Under the pieces are notes generated by a model. It did not search any database. It had not been told where the DNA came from and saw nothing but the letters and a program-made list of their open reading frames with translations. Positions 29,592 to 60,873 of a stretch of 64,000 nt of DNA are shown here, one piece after another; position 1 is the first letter of the stretch; the number at the start of each line of letters is the position of its first letter. Origin of the DNA: a phage; the sequence record PZ445134.1, one strand, 5' to 3'. Position numbers and translations under genes: made by a program.

Positions 29592-30365
29592 ATGGCAGTT
29601 GAAGGACCGTGGGTAGGATGGTCTGCAAGGGTACAGACTGGAGATCCTTGGATGGGTGGTGCCGCACAGAGATTAAGAATGGGCATTCCGTTCTGGATGA
29701 GTAATATGATAGGTCGATCTGTTGAAGTAATTCACACACTTGGAGCAGACCATAACTTCAATGGTCAATGGTTCCGAGATAGATGTTTTGAGGCAGGCAG
29801 TGCACCTATAGTGTTTAATATCACTGGAAATTTAGTATCATATAGTAAAGATGTTCCATTATTCTTTATGTATGGCGATACACCAAATGAATATGTTACT
29901 TTGAATATTCATGGTGGTGTTCATATGTGGGGCCGAGGTGGTAATGGTAGCGTAAATGGAAGCCCAGGCACAAATGGCGGCGATGTAATCCAAAATGATA
30001 TCGGCGGAAGACTTCGTATTTGGAACTACGGCGTTATTGCATCAGGTGGCGGTGGCGGTGGTGCAGTGTCGTTAAAGAATAGCTGGCCTGCAAATTCTAC
30101 AGCAGGTGGCGGTGGTGGTAGACCATTTGGCATCGGCGGTGGCGGCGTTAATTGGCCTGGTGGTAATGCTAGTTATGACGGTCCAGGTGGTGGTGGTGGT
30201 ACAAGTCAATATGGCGGTGGGCGTGGCGGTGATGCTGGAGGTTGGGGCGGAGATGGATGGGGTAAGAACTTGTCCAGATCTGGCGGTGGTGCTCCTGGCA
30301 GAGCAGTATTCGGAAGTTCACCGTCATGGGGTGCTACAGGCACAATCTACGGCTCCTGGATTTAA
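29592..30365 (+). CDS. 38: tail fibre adhesin gp38 (T2-type, glycine-rich motifs)
   Basis: Start set at ATG 29592 ([10 protein letters not shown]...) after GGAGG SD (track begins at an upstream TTG); conserved N-terminal region then poly-Gly motifs separating variable segments. Confidence 0.85.
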
Positions 30366-56444: not shown

Positions 56445-57104
56445 TTAACCTCGATTCATAAATGCGTTAAATATTTGGTCATCAACAGAAATTTCTAATT
56501 CGACTTCAATTGTTTCAGCCTTTTCTTCAGGTGGTAATTCGTATCCACACACTACAATTTTTTCATCGATATCAAAATATACAGAAGCAATACGATTAAT
56601 GTTACTTTCAGTTAAGTCTAAATCAACATCAACATCTTTTTGACCTACACTTAAAGGATAACTAATACGGGTTATTTTATTATCTTTAACAAAGAGTCCA
56701 CCGACATACTCTGTACTATGTTTGAAGCTTACACGTTTCCGAAATGAAAGATATGATGCATCTTTACCGTGAGCTCGGCTCATAGGACATAATGAATAGC
56801 TAGAATAAGAGATGTCAAATCCTACACCTTCAATATGAGCCAACGCGTCATGATTAAACCAATTATAATCATATGCCAAATCCATTATATTGTAATATGT
56901 GAAAGGCACTGGATTAACATCATACGTTGTACCTTTAAAATCTGCCCAGGCAACGATTTCGTTATCTTTAACAATTACAAAAATTACACCAATATGGTAT
57001 CCGTTATTATTTTCATTCGGCGTTATATTATAACATTGTGCATTAGGAAATTTACCATATTTAAATGGTGCGTTTTTGTGCATGTAATAAATCATATTAT
57101 TCAC
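56445..57104 (-). CDS. hypothetical protein, 219 aa
   Basis: Track ORF. Confidence 0.55.
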   Translation of the reverse strand: MNNMIYYMHKNAPFKYGKFPNAQCYNITPNENNNGYHIGVIFVIVKDNEIVAWADFKGTTYDVNPVPFTYYNIMDLAYDYNWFNHDALAHIEGVGFDISYSSYSLCPMSRAHGKDASYLSFRKRVSFKHSTEYVGGLFVKDNKITRISYPLSVGQKDVDVDLDLTESNINRIASVYFDIDEKIVVCGYELPPEEKAETIEVELEISVDDQIFNAFMNRG

Positions 57105-57390
57105 CTGTGATTTCGGTTACGATATCTTTGTTATCGAAATTAGGGTCACAATACAAAACATAGTTGTACTGCATGATACCGCCAGACTTAAGTTGTCCAA
57201 CAACTTTATTAACCATATTAGGACGGTCTCGTTTAGTGATGTTCATGATATCAGAGAAGATTTGTTGTTCAACATCTTCTTGATTTGCAGTCATTGACCA
57301 CTCACAGAGGTCTTTATCATAACCTGCTGTAACTGGAGCTGGTGCACATGATACTGCAAGTAAGATTGCTGCCAATGATAACTTTTTCAT
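57097..57390 (-). CDS. sp: spackle periplasmic protein Sp
   Basis: 97 aa with signal peptide; matches recalled T4 Sp (AGYDKDLCEWSMTA.Q..VE.QI..DIMNI.KRDRP...SGG.MQYNYVLYCD.NF.NK); promoter 57420-57449. Confidence 0.85.
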   Translation of the reverse strand: MKKLSLAAILLAVSCAPAPVTAGYDKDLCEWSMTANQEDVEQQIFSDIMNITKRDRPNMVNKVVGQLKSGGIMQYNYVLYCDPNFDNKDIVTEITGE

Positions 57391-57419
57391 TTTAACTCCT
57401 TAGTTGATTTGATAGGACT

Positions 57420-57449
57420 ACTATACCATAGTCCATCTATAATGTAAAC
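57420..57449 (-). promoter_or_regulatory. T4-type early promoter (sp)
   Basis: minus strand GTTTAC, 18 nt, TATAGT. Confidence 0.5.
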
Positions 57450-57453
57450 AACT

Positions 57454-57702
57454 TTATTCTTTTTCGCGAATAATAATTACTTGTTGAGGCTGCTGGGCAG
57501 ATTTCTTTTCGGCAACGATAGACCAAATTAAAGTTCCAATCCAACCAATCATCGTCCAGTTAAAGAGTAAAGATATAAAGAAGATTGCTGTTGTGCTTTT
57601 TGTGCCACGAATAAGTGCGATTACCCAAGGCAACATGTAAATGATGATTGAACCAATACCTGCGATTAAAACTGCTACTGAACTAGCTACGAATAATTCC
57701 AT
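57454..57702 (-). CDS. small inner-membrane protein, 82 aa (superinfection-immunity-like?)
   Basis: Two TM segments with LLFNWTMIGWIGTLIWS motif reminiscent of Imm-type proteins; promoter 57731-57760. Confidence 0.5.
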   Translation of the reverse strand: MELFVASSVAVLIAGIGSIIIYMLPWVIALIRGTKSTTAIFFISLLFNWTMIGWIGTLIWSIVAEKKSAQQPQQVIIIREKE

Positions 57703-57730
57703 GTTAATTTCCTCTTGATTTGTTATGTTT

Positions 57731-57760
57731 ATAATATCTTGTTTTAACTTTGGTGTAAAC
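57731..57760 (-). promoter_or_regulatory. T4-type early promoter
   Basis: minus strand GTTTAC, 18 nt, TATTAT. Confidence 0.55.
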
Positions 57761-57763
57761 CAA

Positions 57764-58132
57764 TTAATTAAATTTGTTTAAACGTTCAATACACTGGACG
57801 TAGTTATTTGCGATTTGTTTCTGGGTGGGCTCTTTACCAGTTGTTTCAACATAGCGAATGAATGCGATTTCAGTAGCCTGTAGACAATGTTCTTTAACGC
57901 GTTGTTCTTTTGACAATGCTACAGTATCAGAGTCACGATAACGTTGAGCATGGGCATCAGCTTGAATCATTCGATTACCTACAGTAACCGGGTCTTCCAC
58001 TTCAACTTTAGGTTGGTCATACTGTTTAACATTCGGATTGTAAATCAGTTGGCCAACGTTATTAGGGATAAAGCCATGGGCACCACATCCGGTTAATCCA
58101 AATACCATTGCTAAAGCGATTAATTTTTTCAT
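57764..58132 (-). CDS. putative lipoprotein, 122 aa
   Basis: Signal peptide plus lipobox (MKKLIALAMVFGLTGCGA); promoter 58161-58190. Confidence 0.55.
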   Translation of the reverse strand: MKKLIALAMVFGLTGCGAHGFIPNNVGQLIYNPNVKQYDQPKVEVEDPVTVGNRMIQADAHAQRYRDSDTVALSKEQRVKEHCLQATEIAFIRYVETTGKEPTQKQIANNYVQCIERLNKFN

Positions 58133-58160
58133 TTCAATTTCCTCTGTAGTTGATAGAAAG

Positions 58161-58190
58161 ATAGTAACACAGTATGTGGTGCTTGTAAAC
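58161..58190 (-). promoter_or_regulatory. T4-type early promoter
   Basis: minus strand GTTTAC, 18 nt, TACTAT. Confidence 0.5.
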
Positions 58191-58192
58191 AG

Positions 58193-58405
58193 TTATTTTA
58201 AACTTTTGCGAAATTTGCGTTTTTCTTGACGAATCTGTCGTTTAGTCGGACGTACAGCAAATTTAACGAAGTCCACTTTGCCGTGTGGAAACTTTTCAGA
58301 TGCTTCACAGTCCATCATTAGTTCCCATCCTTCCAGAATAAGAGCTTTCCATTGTGTAGTTGATGCAAATTCGTATGTTGATGGTTTAAACACAGTTGAA
58401 TACAT
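58193..58405 (-). CDS. hypothetical basic protein, 70 aa
   Basis: Track ORF trimmed to ATG 58405 with GAGGA SD, removing a 44-nt overlap. Confidence 0.45.
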   Translation of the reverse strand: MYSTVFKPSTYEFASTTQWKALILEGWELMMDCEASEKFPHGKVDFVKFAVRPTKRQIRQEKRKFRKSLK

Positions 58406-58406
58406 A

Positions 58407-58598
58407 TTATCCTCTGAAATCAGCTTCAAAAACTTTCTCGTCATTAACAAATGCTTTAACTAATGCGTTGTTCACTTCAGCAAGTTGTACCGTAACCCAC
58501 TCGATTTCTTCGCGATCACCTGATAACATAATATCTTTAGTGAACATCTCGCCGCTTTTAAACCAACCTATAAAAGTAACTTTAGTTAATTTGCTCAT
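58407..58598 (-). CDS. hypothetical protein, 63 aa (Dmd-size, coupled to upstream Arr-like ORF)
   Basis: ATG 58598 overlaps stop of the 105-aa ORF (ATGA); size and map position near gene 41 recall T4 dmd, but sequence identity could not be verified. Confidence 0.4.
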   Translation of the reverse strand: MSKLTKVTFIGWFKSGEMFTKDIMLSGDREEIEWVTVQLAEVNNALVKAFVNDEKVFEADFRG

Positions 58599-58912
58599 AT
58601 TTCCTCGCAAAATGCCCATTCAGCGTGATAAACTGTAGCACCTTTAGTATCATTCATTTGAACTACGTCTACCGGAGAAATTACTCGATAGAGACGTGGT
58701 TCACCTCCGTAAGAGCGTGCTGCTCGTCCTGCATAAATCTTTGCTAAACCGATATCTTCAGTAAAGAATACCCGATCCAAGTTTTTCTTACGTCCAGTTT
58801 CAGACAGAACTCCTGTTTCTTCAGGAGGACAAAGCATGTTTTCGATGTTAGCTGAACTACTTGAACCGTGATAAAAAATCTTAAATTCTGCTTTACAATC
58901 AATGGTTTTCAT
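58595..58912 (-). CDS. small H-G-S motif protein, 105 aa; Arr/Tpt1-like ADP-ribosyltransferase fold candidate
   Basis: Motif series FYHGSSSS ... VFFTEDIGLAKIYAG ... YRVISPVDVV resembles the H-G-T/S, beta-strand and Y-x-V-x-P signature of Arr/KptA-clan enzymes; promoter 58939-58967. Confidence 0.4.
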   Translation of the reverse strand: MKTIDCKAEFKIFYHGSSSSANIENMLCPPEETGVLSETGRKKNLDRVFFTEDIGLAKIYAGRAARSYGGEPRLYRVISPVDVVQMNDTKGATVYHAEWAFCEEI

Positions 58913-58938
58913 TTTGTTCTCCAGTAGTTGATAGGTCT

Positions 58939-58967
58939 ATAATAACACAACTACTGGAGAAGTAAAC
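58939..58967 (-). promoter_or_regulatory. T4-type early promoter (Arr-like operon)
   Basis: minus strand GTTTAC, 17 nt, TATTAT, flanked by inverted repeat CTCCAGTAGTTG/CAACTACTGGAG. Confidence 0.55.
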
Positions 58968-59342
58968 TTAAAAACGTAATTTAGATACATCTACGTTGAT
59001 TTCGCTTTGGTTTGCGTCGTATGCAATTAAACGAACAGCTTTAGATGGGTCATTCAATGCATAGAAATGATGGAACATTGCTCGAACGATATCACCATTT
59101 ACGAGTTCTACCTGGATAGGAGAACCTTTTTCGAGTTGGAAATGTTCATAAGCTTTGATGGTTCGCAGATAATCAAGTTTTTGATTTCCGGCTCCAACAA
59201 TTTGTACGATACGTTTGCCCATGTTTTCCATACGAGATACAATAGTTTTAGGAGCAAGAATAACGTAGGTTGCCAGCGGAGAAACTACTTCAACAGTTGT
59301 GTTTTCGGTGATTGCAGTAAAAATTGCTTGAGACATATTCAT
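58968..59342 (-). CDS. hypothetical protein, 124 aa
   Basis: Track ORF; promoter 59372-59401. Confidence 0.5.
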   Translation of the reverse strand: MNMSQAIFTAITENTTVEVVSPLATYVILAPKTIVSRMENMGKRIVQIVGAGNQKLDYLRTIKAYEHFQLEKGSPIQVELVNGDIVRAMFHHFYALNDPSKAVRLIAYDANQSEINVDVSKLRF

Positions 59343-59371
59343 AGTGTTTTCCTCTTGGTTTGTGTAAGTAC

Positions 59372-59401
59372 ATCATATCATGCCTAGAGGAAGATGTAAA
59401 C
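59372..59401 (-). promoter_or_regulatory. T4-type early promoter
   Basis: minus strand GTTTAC, 18 nt, TATGAT. Confidence 0.5.
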
Positions 59402-59408
59402 CCCGAAA

Positions 59409-59424
59409 GGAGACCGAAGTCTCC
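59409..59424 (-). terminator. hairpin after gene 41
   Basis: GGAGACCGAAGTCTCC with T-run on the plus side. Confidence 0.5.
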
Positions 59425-59430
59425 TTTTTA

Positions 59431-60873
59431 TTAAAATTTTAACTCATTGGCTAAGCTATCTAGGTCAGCACGTGTTGTTTTGGCTTTACCTACGCGTTCC
59501 GTACGATTCACCTCTGCCTGACGCATCTGGGCACCTGCGTTTTCATTTACTGTGTTAGGTGTGTTCATGCCTTCTTGCTCAATCTCAACCCATTTCTGGT
59601 TGCCTTTACGTACACCCATCAGGAATTTATTCCACTTATTCTTATCACCATACCGTGATTTGATTTGTTTGATAAGTTGTTGTTCAGCTTGTGCAAGTTC
59701 TTCGGTTTCAATTACGGCCAACATGAAATCTGCCGTTGCTGGTAAACCTGCTGATTCTGCAATATCGCTCATGTTCATATCCGAAGCATCCCATGCTGCA
59801 CGTCCTACTTGAGCTGCAGTCCATAGAACTGTTTCAGATTCTACTGCTAATGCACGAAGTTCTTCTGCGATAGCTTTAACTAATGTGTAGCTATTTTCAG
59901 TGTAAACTCTGATACGACAAGACCCACAAATACCTAAGTAATCAACCATGATTACAGATGGCACAAAGTTCTTCTTGAGTTTCAATTCATTAAGCAATGC
60001 ACGGAATGTATTAGCATTAGCTCCGCCAGTAGGATACTGTTTAACTACTAAACGTCCTAATGTTGTTTTTGAACGCCATTTTTCCATCTTGGCTTTATAT
60101 TCAGCATAAGATACGTTACCATCATCGATATCATCGAGCGATACGTCAAGCATGTTTGCATCTATACGCTTAGCACAAACTTCTTCAGCCATTTCCATAG
60201 AAATATAAAGAACGTTATGACCTGTTTGAAGATAATCTGCAGCAAGTGAACAAAGGCCTAAAGATTTACCGACGTTAACACCGGCCATTAAAACATTCAG
60301 TGTACCAGTTTCAGCACCACCTTTAGTGATTTTATTCAGAATGTTTAATTTGAACGGGACCTTACGTGCTTTGTTCAGATAAGAAAGCCAGCGTGCTTCA
60401 TAGTCTTCCATCCAGTCATGTCCAACATAACTATCAAACGAAATTGAAAGTGCTTGACGCATAATATCAGGAATAGCTCCTACGTCAGGCATTTTCTTGT
60501 TACGTTGTTCTGGAGGTAGTTCAGCATTAGACTGAATCTCAATGATTTTAGACGTAGCATTATACATCGCTTTTTGCTGGACATATTTCTCAGTTTCTTT
60601 AACCAACCATTCATGGTCTTCAGGAGTATCAGCCAATTTTTCAATTAGGTCTGAAGTTCCTTTATATTCTGCTTCAGTTAAAGAACTGTTATCTAAAGCC
60701 ACCTTTAATGCATTGATAGACGGCATTGCATTATATTCGTTAACGTGGCTCTTTATAATTTTAAAGACATTTTTTGCCGGTCCACGCTCAAAATACTCAG
60801 AATCCATATAAGGCCAGACCTTAGAAAAATAAGCCTGGTCATATACTAGATGAGACAAAATAATTTCTACCAC
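59431..60873 (-). CDS. 41: replicative DNA helicase gp41 (DnaB family)
   Basis: 480 aa; matches recalled T4 gp41 (MVEIILSHL...LNVLMAGVNVGKSLGLCSLAADYLQ); GTG start with AAGGAG SD. Confidence 0.93.
   Translation of the reverse strand: MVEIILSHLVYDQAYFSKVWPYMDSEYFERGPAKNVFKIIKSHVNEYNAMPSINALKVALDNSSLTEAEYKGTSDLIEKLADTPEDHEWLVKETEKYVQQKAMYNATSKIIEIQSNAELPPEQRNKKMPDVGAIPDIMRQALSISFDSYVGHDWMEDYEARWLSYLNKARKVPFKLNILNKITKGGAETGTLNVLMAGVNVGKSLGLCSLAADYLQTGHNVLYISMEMAEEVCAKRIDANMLDVSLDDIDDGNVSYAEYKAKMEKWRSKTTLGRLVVKQYPTGGANANTFRALLNELKLKKNFVPSVIMVDYLGICGSCRIRVYTENSYTLVKAIAEELRALAVESETVLWTAAQVGRAAWDASDMNMSDIAESAGLPATADFMLAVIETEELAQAEQQLIKQIKSRYGDKNKWNKFLMGVRKGNQKWVEIEQEGMNTPNTVNENAGAQMRQAEVNRTERVGKAKTTRADLDSLANELKF

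Follow-up and report, generated by a model that had tools for sequence, protein, structure and literature searches.

Between sp, which encodes Spackle, and the gene 41 helicase, the window (that is, the whole 64,000-nt stretch of phage DNA analyzed here) carried six open reading frames (ORFs), namely imm, imm.1, 61.4, dmd, and homologs of RB69ORF040c and RB69ORF041c. When 2.5 kb spanning these genes was used as a query, DNA identity was 98.3% to RB69 and 99.2% to Escherichia phages AV112 and AV113, and about 155 Mosigvirus records were at least 95% identical to this query; by these similarities we assign the source phage to the RB69-like members of Mosigvirus. The window differed from RB69 by strain-level substitutions only, with AV112 and AV113 being the closer relatives. 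Every gene in the region was on the minus strand, and the ORFs were identical in order to those of the RB69 GenBank record (AY303349, 2003), that is, 41, ORF041c, ORF040c, dmd, 61.4, imm.1, imm, sp, and 61.2. Specifically, gene 41 (59431-60873) was followed by the homologs of ORF041c (124 aa; 58968-59342) and ORF040c (105 aa; 58595-58912), and by dmd, which occupied 58407-58598 with the RB69-annotated start, or extended to 58619, and matched PF17587 (5.7e-21) and phrog_2102. Gene 61.4 (70 aa; 58193-58405), imm.1 (122 aa; 57764-58132), and imm (82 aa; 57454-57702) came next, and then sp (gp61.3; 57097-57390), recognized by PF25676 (T4_Spackle; 3.7e-42), phrog_1586, and the RB69 annotation, and 61.2 (56445-57104).

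The three minus-strand ORFs that an earlier, sequence-only reading had singled out as additional envelope-targeted genes were found where it had placed them and correspond to imm, imm.1, and 61.4. Because each is kept in hundreds of phage genomes and has an above-threshold match to a curated family, these are not chance ORFs, and that possibility was dropped for all three. The genes were in fact already known, having been named in RB69's 2003 record (imm, AAP75938; imm.1, AAP75939; 61.4, AAP75940), where they are alike in order and lengths. We found no paralogs of the three within the window, and neither NCBIfam nor PADLOC added to the annotation of the region, while searches with Rfam returned no credible RNA in 56500-59600.

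The 82-aa protein matched the Imm_superinfect family (PF14373) at 57.0 bits, against a gathering cut-off of 27.9, across residues 21-62 and the full 42-position model, and it also matched phrog_1039, described as 'immunity to superinfection' (1.1e-30). Aligned end to end with T4 Imm (83 columns, one gap), it showed 65% identity, and we assign it as the ortholog of that protein. The description from sequence alone, of a two-TM protein with an Imm-like motif for which an Imm_superinfect profile search was proposed, was therefore right and, with respect to the motif, understated: the motif LLFNWTMIGWIGTLIW was present, the profile search gave a match above threshold, and a Kyte-Doolittle analysis recovered two hydrophobic segments, at residues 1-34 and 40-59. 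The T4 and window proteins have in common the two hydrophobic helices, the motif LPW..AL.RG.KS...IFF..LLFNW..IGW, and a C-terminal IIIREKE tail. Searches of PDB sequences with Imm gave nothing usable.

By analogy with its T4 counterpart, this Imm would be a two-helix inner-membrane protein that keeps superinfecting T-even DNA from crossing the cytoplasmic membrane, such that the DNA is stranded in the periplasm; the blocking activity of the RB69-type protein is assumed here from its identity to T4 Imm. T4 Imm has been described as barring the DNA of superinfecting phages from passage through the inner membrane, and T4 Sp as inhibiting the gp5 tail lysozyme in the periplasm (PMC7677548). Lysozyme inhibition by Sp forms the second arm of T-even superinfection exclusion, and the sp gene adjoins imm here. 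Spackle is a soluble periplasmic protein that acts by another mechanism and is not homologous to Imm or to Imm.1. With sp, imm, and imm.1 being contiguous, a set of envelope and superinfection genes is present in the region, as had been suggested.

The 122-aa protein encoded by imm.1 scored 37.3 bits with DUF5481 (PF17578), for which the cut-off is 27, and also matched phrog_1754 (5.1e-29). It was 99.2% identical to RB69 Imm.1 (tblastn) and 32% identical to T4 Imm.1, and can be assigned as the Imm.1 ortholog. It had been called a lipoprotein, with prediction of a signal peptide and lipobox offered as the check, and the prediction was positive, with a signal peptide and the lipobox LTG/C (L-T-G-C) at residues 13-16, the last being Cys16. 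T4 Imm.1, too, is a lipoprotein with a lipobox and of comparable size, has the YNPNVK motif and two conserved C-terminal cysteines, and is encoded directly upstream of imm, although its lipobox reads LAG/C rather than LTG/C. Homologs from other genera are longer (145-167 aa), carry an inserted segment, and score too low for the Pfam DUF5481 model but match phrog_1754; only the T4 and Mosigvirus versions reached the Pfam model. The number of homologs recovered depended on the method, with three from a single-sequence word-indexed search and 24 from a profile query, and one metagenomic homolog (P0002) was without the lipobox cysteine. Both C83 and C114 were invariant in an alignment of seven Imm.1 sequences, and C114 was also invariant in an alignment of 23.

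In E. coli, lipoproteins that do not have an aspartate at position +2, after the lipid-modified cysteine, are predicted to be sorted to the outer membrane. Aspartate was absent from this position in the Imm.1 lipoproteins of all six genera considered below, and for this reason outer-membrane sorting is predicted for Imm.1, which is thus probably an outer-membrane lipoprotein. An AlphaFold2 (AF2) model built from the 23-sequence alignment was moderate overall (mean pLDDT 63), with residues 1-48 disordered and helices at residues 48-98 and 104-121. The C-terminal helical hairpin, which holds both conserved cysteines, was confidently modeled (pLDDT 80-92 over residues 70-120). Imm.1 may therefore be pictured as an exported protein, lipidated at Cys16, with a flexible tether of about 30 residues leading to a C-terminal helical hairpin, which a predicted Cys83-Cys114 disulfide probably staples. 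Searches for a fold neighbor in the PDB with Foldseek (best E-value 1.8) and for a relative among PDB sequences with a profile each found none, and our literature search found no paper describing the function of Imm.1. In some RefSeq records the protein is called 'iduronate sulfatase', a label for which we found no support.

The 70-aa protein scored 72.1 bits with DUF7279 (PF23945; cut-off 24.5), also matched phrog_2375, and was 57% identical to T4 gp61.4. We assign it as the conserved T4 gene 61.4, located at its normal place after dmd. The T4 and window versions share a basic RPTKRQIRQ.KR.FRK tail and an identical 1-nt dmd/61.4 junction. T4 gp61.4 is, however, 85 aa in length, with a C-terminal extension that the window protein does not have, and the gene downstream of 61.4 is sp in T4 whereas it is imm.1 in the window. 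The sequence-only reading had termed this protein both basic and envelope-targeted. The former held (pI 9.87, with 15 K+R versus 8 D+E). The latter did not, since the window protein showed no signal peptide, lipobox, transmembrane segment, or N-terminal hydrophobic stretch, with no 19-aa window reaching a Kyte-Doolittle value of 1.6 and a GRAVY of -0.68. That reading had also named the alternative that would overturn it, in which the ORFs prove to be conserved T4 61.x genes of known cytoplasmic function; for this ORF the first part is what we found, and not the second, as our literature search recovered no paper on the function of 61.4. Gene 61.4 would accordingly encode a small, basic, cytoplasmic protein made in tandem with the antitoxin Dmd, without an envelope role. 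The family is narrow, given that an exhaustive search of representatives found three matches; the initial homolog search gave two. A single-sequence AF2 model of the protein was poor (pTM 0.27), and PDB sequence searches with 61.4 and with ORF040c gave nothing usable. Some RefSeq records carry the label 'DNA polymerase' on 61.4, and no support for it was found.

With respect to transcription, the window held 19 copies of the T4-type early-promoter motif GTTTAC-N17-19-TANNAT, where 0.71 were expected, and 18 of the copies were on the minus strand. Both imm and imm.1 had a copy of the motif 28-31 nt ahead of the start codon, followed by a GAGGA ribosome-binding site; these putative promoters are GTTTACA-N17-TACTAT for imm.1 (58161-58190) and GTTTACA-N17-TATTAT for imm (57731-57760). 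Only a near-match preceded sp, this being the early-promoter-like site TTTACA-17-TATAGT with a G before it (57420-57448). The situation differed for 61.4. Its ATG (58405) and the stop codon of dmd (58407) were 1 nt apart, a junction that held no copy of the motif, so that transcription of 61.4 is assigned to the predicted early promoter at 58939-58967, which would serve a single ORF040c-dmd-61.4 unit with dmd as the upstream partner; the same spacing marks 61.4 as translationally coupled to dmd. Hence, the notion that each of the three genes sits behind its own early promoter applied to imm and imm.1, but not to 61.4. The window also differs from T4 in this regard, in that imm has an early promoter of its own, while in T4 the imm.1-imm gap is only 7 nt, leaving that phage without a promoter before imm. 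As in T4, Imm and Sp would be made right after infection from early promoters.

Why, then, does the interval between sp and gene 41 hold more than it does in T4? There, the corresponding interval contains only 61.4 and dmd, in line with the one or two small ORFs that the earlier reading gave for T4 at this place. The T4 imm gene is instead part of the series 43 > imm.1 > imm > 42.1 > 42, and not next to sp as in the window. Moreover, imm was located directly downstream of gene 43 in the Gaprivervirus EAWsc9, the Jiaodavirus vB_KpnM-JEC, the Dhakavirus dhaeg, and the Gelderlandvirus S16. Using the window Imm as a tblastn query, we recovered a single imm place in each of 1035 phage records, and no second imm or imm.1 was present near gene 43 in RB69 or in the 155 close relatives searched. 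In the IMG/VR collection of viral contigs, only two of 80 Imm-encoding loci had sp within 3 kb of imm, both of them Mosigvirus-type.

The corresponding site was read from RB69, as the interval between genes 42 and 43 falls outside the window for the phage studied here. In RB69 this interval comprises ORF045c-055c, from which imm is absent, and includes a region implicated in arabinosyl-hmC modification (PMC6024577). It also contains ORF054c, a 36-aa homolog of T4 42.1 (57% identity over 30 aa), which we interpret as the footprint of the former imm locus. At the receiving end, the alignment of the 61.4-imm.1 spacer was composite, with its 5′ half resembling the T4 61.4-sp spacer and the sequence from the promoter onward resembling the T4 43-imm.1 spacer, which, in one short alignment, hints that recombination at the early promoter created the new junction.

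From these comparisons of gene order and sequence, we conclude that the imm.1-imm pair was relocated beside sp in the Mosigvirus lineage, leaving an exclusion set as large as that of T4, and that the additional content between sp and gene 41 is present because the pair moved there from the gene 43/42 interval. In such a scenario, the ancestral site would have been just downstream of the DNA polymerase gene 43, from which imm.1 and imm moved jointly to the spacer between 61.4 and sp, with a probable break at an early promoter, and genes for arabosyl-hmC DNA modification would have filled the old imm site. The outcome is that Sp, Imm, and Imm.1 are now encoded contiguously, each with its own early promoter. 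We consider it very probable that the region as a whole represents three named T4-family early genes, being a relocated imm.1-imm pair together with a cytoplasmic 61.4 that stayed in place. Our literature search found no paper discussing the relocation of imm in RB69-type phages. If correct, Mosigvirus offers a clean case of a two-gene early cassette that moved between promoter-bounded slots, with DNA-modification genes filling the slot left behind.

The association of imm with imm.1 was pursued across other phages. In six genera, among them those of T4 and the window, the gene next to imm on the same strand encoded a lipoprotein of 122-167 aa with a lipobox. The lipoboxes were LAGC in T4, LSGC in EAWsc9, LTGC in JEC, LSGC in dhaeg, and LAGC in S16, and the imm-adjacent lipoproteins of all five genera other than that of the window (T4 included) belonged to phrog_1754 (E-values between 1e-15 and 2e-52). 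The order of the two genes was variable, with imm.1 lying upstream of imm in four genera (Tequatro-, Mosig-, Jiaoda-, and Gelderlandvirus) and downstream in the other two (Gapriver- and Dhakavirus); in the window they are co-oriented and separated by 61 nt. We also scanned the 80 IMG/VR loci, which had been found with the Imm alignment, using an HMM built from the lipoprotein sequences. An Imm.1-family ORF was located beside imm, on the same strand and on either side, in all 21 T4-like loci, which were on contigs of T4-like size, and in none of the 59 other Imm loci, which were on smaller, mostly temperate-type contigs. Synteny across T4-like genomes in general may account in part for the adjacency of the two genes.

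That the pairing is conserved despite flips in gene order and a change of address constitutes context evidence for a link between Imm.1 and Imm, and the constancy of the adjacency, together with the joint move, suggests a functional partnership. This is a modest new point that is absent from the annotation, the gene arrangement itself being that of RB69 and already publicly annotated. As a possible mechanism, Imm.1 may assist or tune Imm-dependent immunity from the periplasm.

It is nevertheless quite possible, in our estimation, that Imm.1 is unrelated to immunity, being instead a periplasmic or outer-membrane lipoprotein with a role in the envelope, in lysis timing, or at a receptor, which lies near imm by inherited synteny. 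The early regions of T4-like phages are broadly syntenic, the Imm homologs of temperate and small phages do without Imm.1 (0 of 59 loci), and no paper on its function emerged from our literature search. Furthermore, T4 imm cloned alone reportedly gives immunity (Lu & Henning, 1989), in which case Imm.1 would not be indispensable. Inherited synteny alone does not, however, readily accommodate a pair that remains adjacent and co-oriented through order flips across genera, and that was kept together at a new genomic address in Mosigvirus, when the surroundings (42, b-gt, and the arabinosylation genes) are highly variable.

A more specific form of the partnership is that Imm.1 represents an unrecognized third component of T-even superinfection exclusion, the candidate being an outer-membrane-tethered, disulfide-stapled hairpin that works with Imm; we regard this as rather unlikely. 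In that capacity, Imm.1 might bridge the periplasm at the site of DNA entry or stabilize Imm. If true, it would explain both the constant adjacency and the joint move to the spackle locus in Mosigvirus. The strict imm/imm.1 pairing makes Imm.1 a candidate partner of Imm that could be tested cheaply.

Very unlikely, in turn, is that Imm.1 acts as a receptor blocker of the T5 Llp or Cor type, anchored in the outer membrane and inactivating a porin receptor from the periplasmic side. Although Imm.1 is a small early lipoprotein without aspartate at +2, for which outer-membrane sorting is predicted, and its gene is near two known exclusion genes, the match to phrog_1119 involved the signal peptide only (residues 1-18 of relatives, E 0.014-0.025), and the PDB fold and sequence searches were without a match. 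During T-even superinfection, moreover, secondary phages still adsorb and eject their DNA into the periplasm, so that adsorption is not blocked. Membership of Imm.1 in the Cor/Llp group was dropped, given no sequence likeness past the signal peptide and no PDB match.

Finally, the idea that the exclusion or envelope arsenal has been enlarged past the T4 set, for instance by the addition of an Imm paralog, a lipoprotein, and a basic envelope protein, draws on the six ORFs between sp and 41 versus two in T4 and on two of the three products being envelope proteins, but is extremely improbable, since each of the three ORFs has a T4 ortholog, imm was single in every one of the 1035 records and without paralogs in the window, the T4-type imm.1-imm site is empty in RB69 save for the 42.1 remnant, and 61.4 has no export signal. 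We dropped paralogous expansion on the strength of the single-imm records and the lack of paralogs in the window, and with it the expanded superinfection-exclusion or envelope module proposed in the sequence-only reading. The genes that had seemed extra are RB69-type versions of T4 imm, imm.1, and 61.4, the first two having moved as a pair.

Relative to T4, the ORFs of the sp-41 interval that are truly without a counterpart at that place include the homologs of RB69ORF041c (58968-59342, minus strand; 124 aa, phrog_10668) and RB69ORF040c (58595-58912, minus strand; 105 aa, phrog_2110). Neither had a Pfam match, and a PDB sequence search with the RB69ORF040c homolog also returned no match. The RB69ORF041c homolog has an early promoter of its own, at 59372-59401, and the RB69ORF040c homolog is the first gene of an ORF040c-dmd-61.4 unit and overlaps the start of dmd. 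Conservation of the latter protein is unusually high. Approximately 610 phage records matched it, with identities of 65-90% in T4-like phages of Klebsiella, Acinetobacter, Aeromonas, and Vibrio among the matches listed, and no Tequatrovirus was present among the 25 matches listed. The label 'putative ADP-ribosyl transferase' was attached to it in a few records.

On the other side of sp, and directly downstream of it with an 8-nt overlap, we found gene 61.2 (56445-57104, minus strand), encoding the anti-DarT factor AdfA (PF23813, 1.9e-118). The neighbourhood of sp therefore combines exclusion genes (sp and imm) with anti-defence genes (adfA and dmd). Across the whole window, the T4-type early promoter motif GTTTAC-N17-19-TANNAT occurred 19 times against an expected 0.71, and 18 of these copies were on the minus strand; by this motif count, the window represents a long early-transcribed block.

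A trace of the former imm location was recognized outside the window, in the RB69 locus (L004 7424-7534, corresponding to RB69 29823-29933). There, T4 42.1 has a truncated homolog, RB69ORF054c. In T4 itself, 42.1 is small and hydrophobic, and the ORF overlaps imm at the end of that gene. The RB69 remnant stayed behind near gene 43 once imm.1-imm had moved. In contrast to the truncated RB69 version, a full 42.1 homolog of 47 aa is located immediately after imm in Gaprivervirus EAWsc9.

Finally, the RefSeq re-annotation of phage HX01 (NC_018855) gives the name 'iduronate sulfatase' to the ortholog of Imm.1 (57764-58132 in the window) and the name 'DNA polymerase' to that of 61.4 (58193-58405 in the window). 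Pfam and NCBIfam offered no support for these names, and both consequently look like spurious label transfers. A metagenomic Imm.1 homolog (P0002, 46% identical) has LAGF where the lipobox LAGC was expected, and, unless LAGF is a sequencing error, this protein would be a secreted version of Imm.1 rather than a lipid-anchored one.
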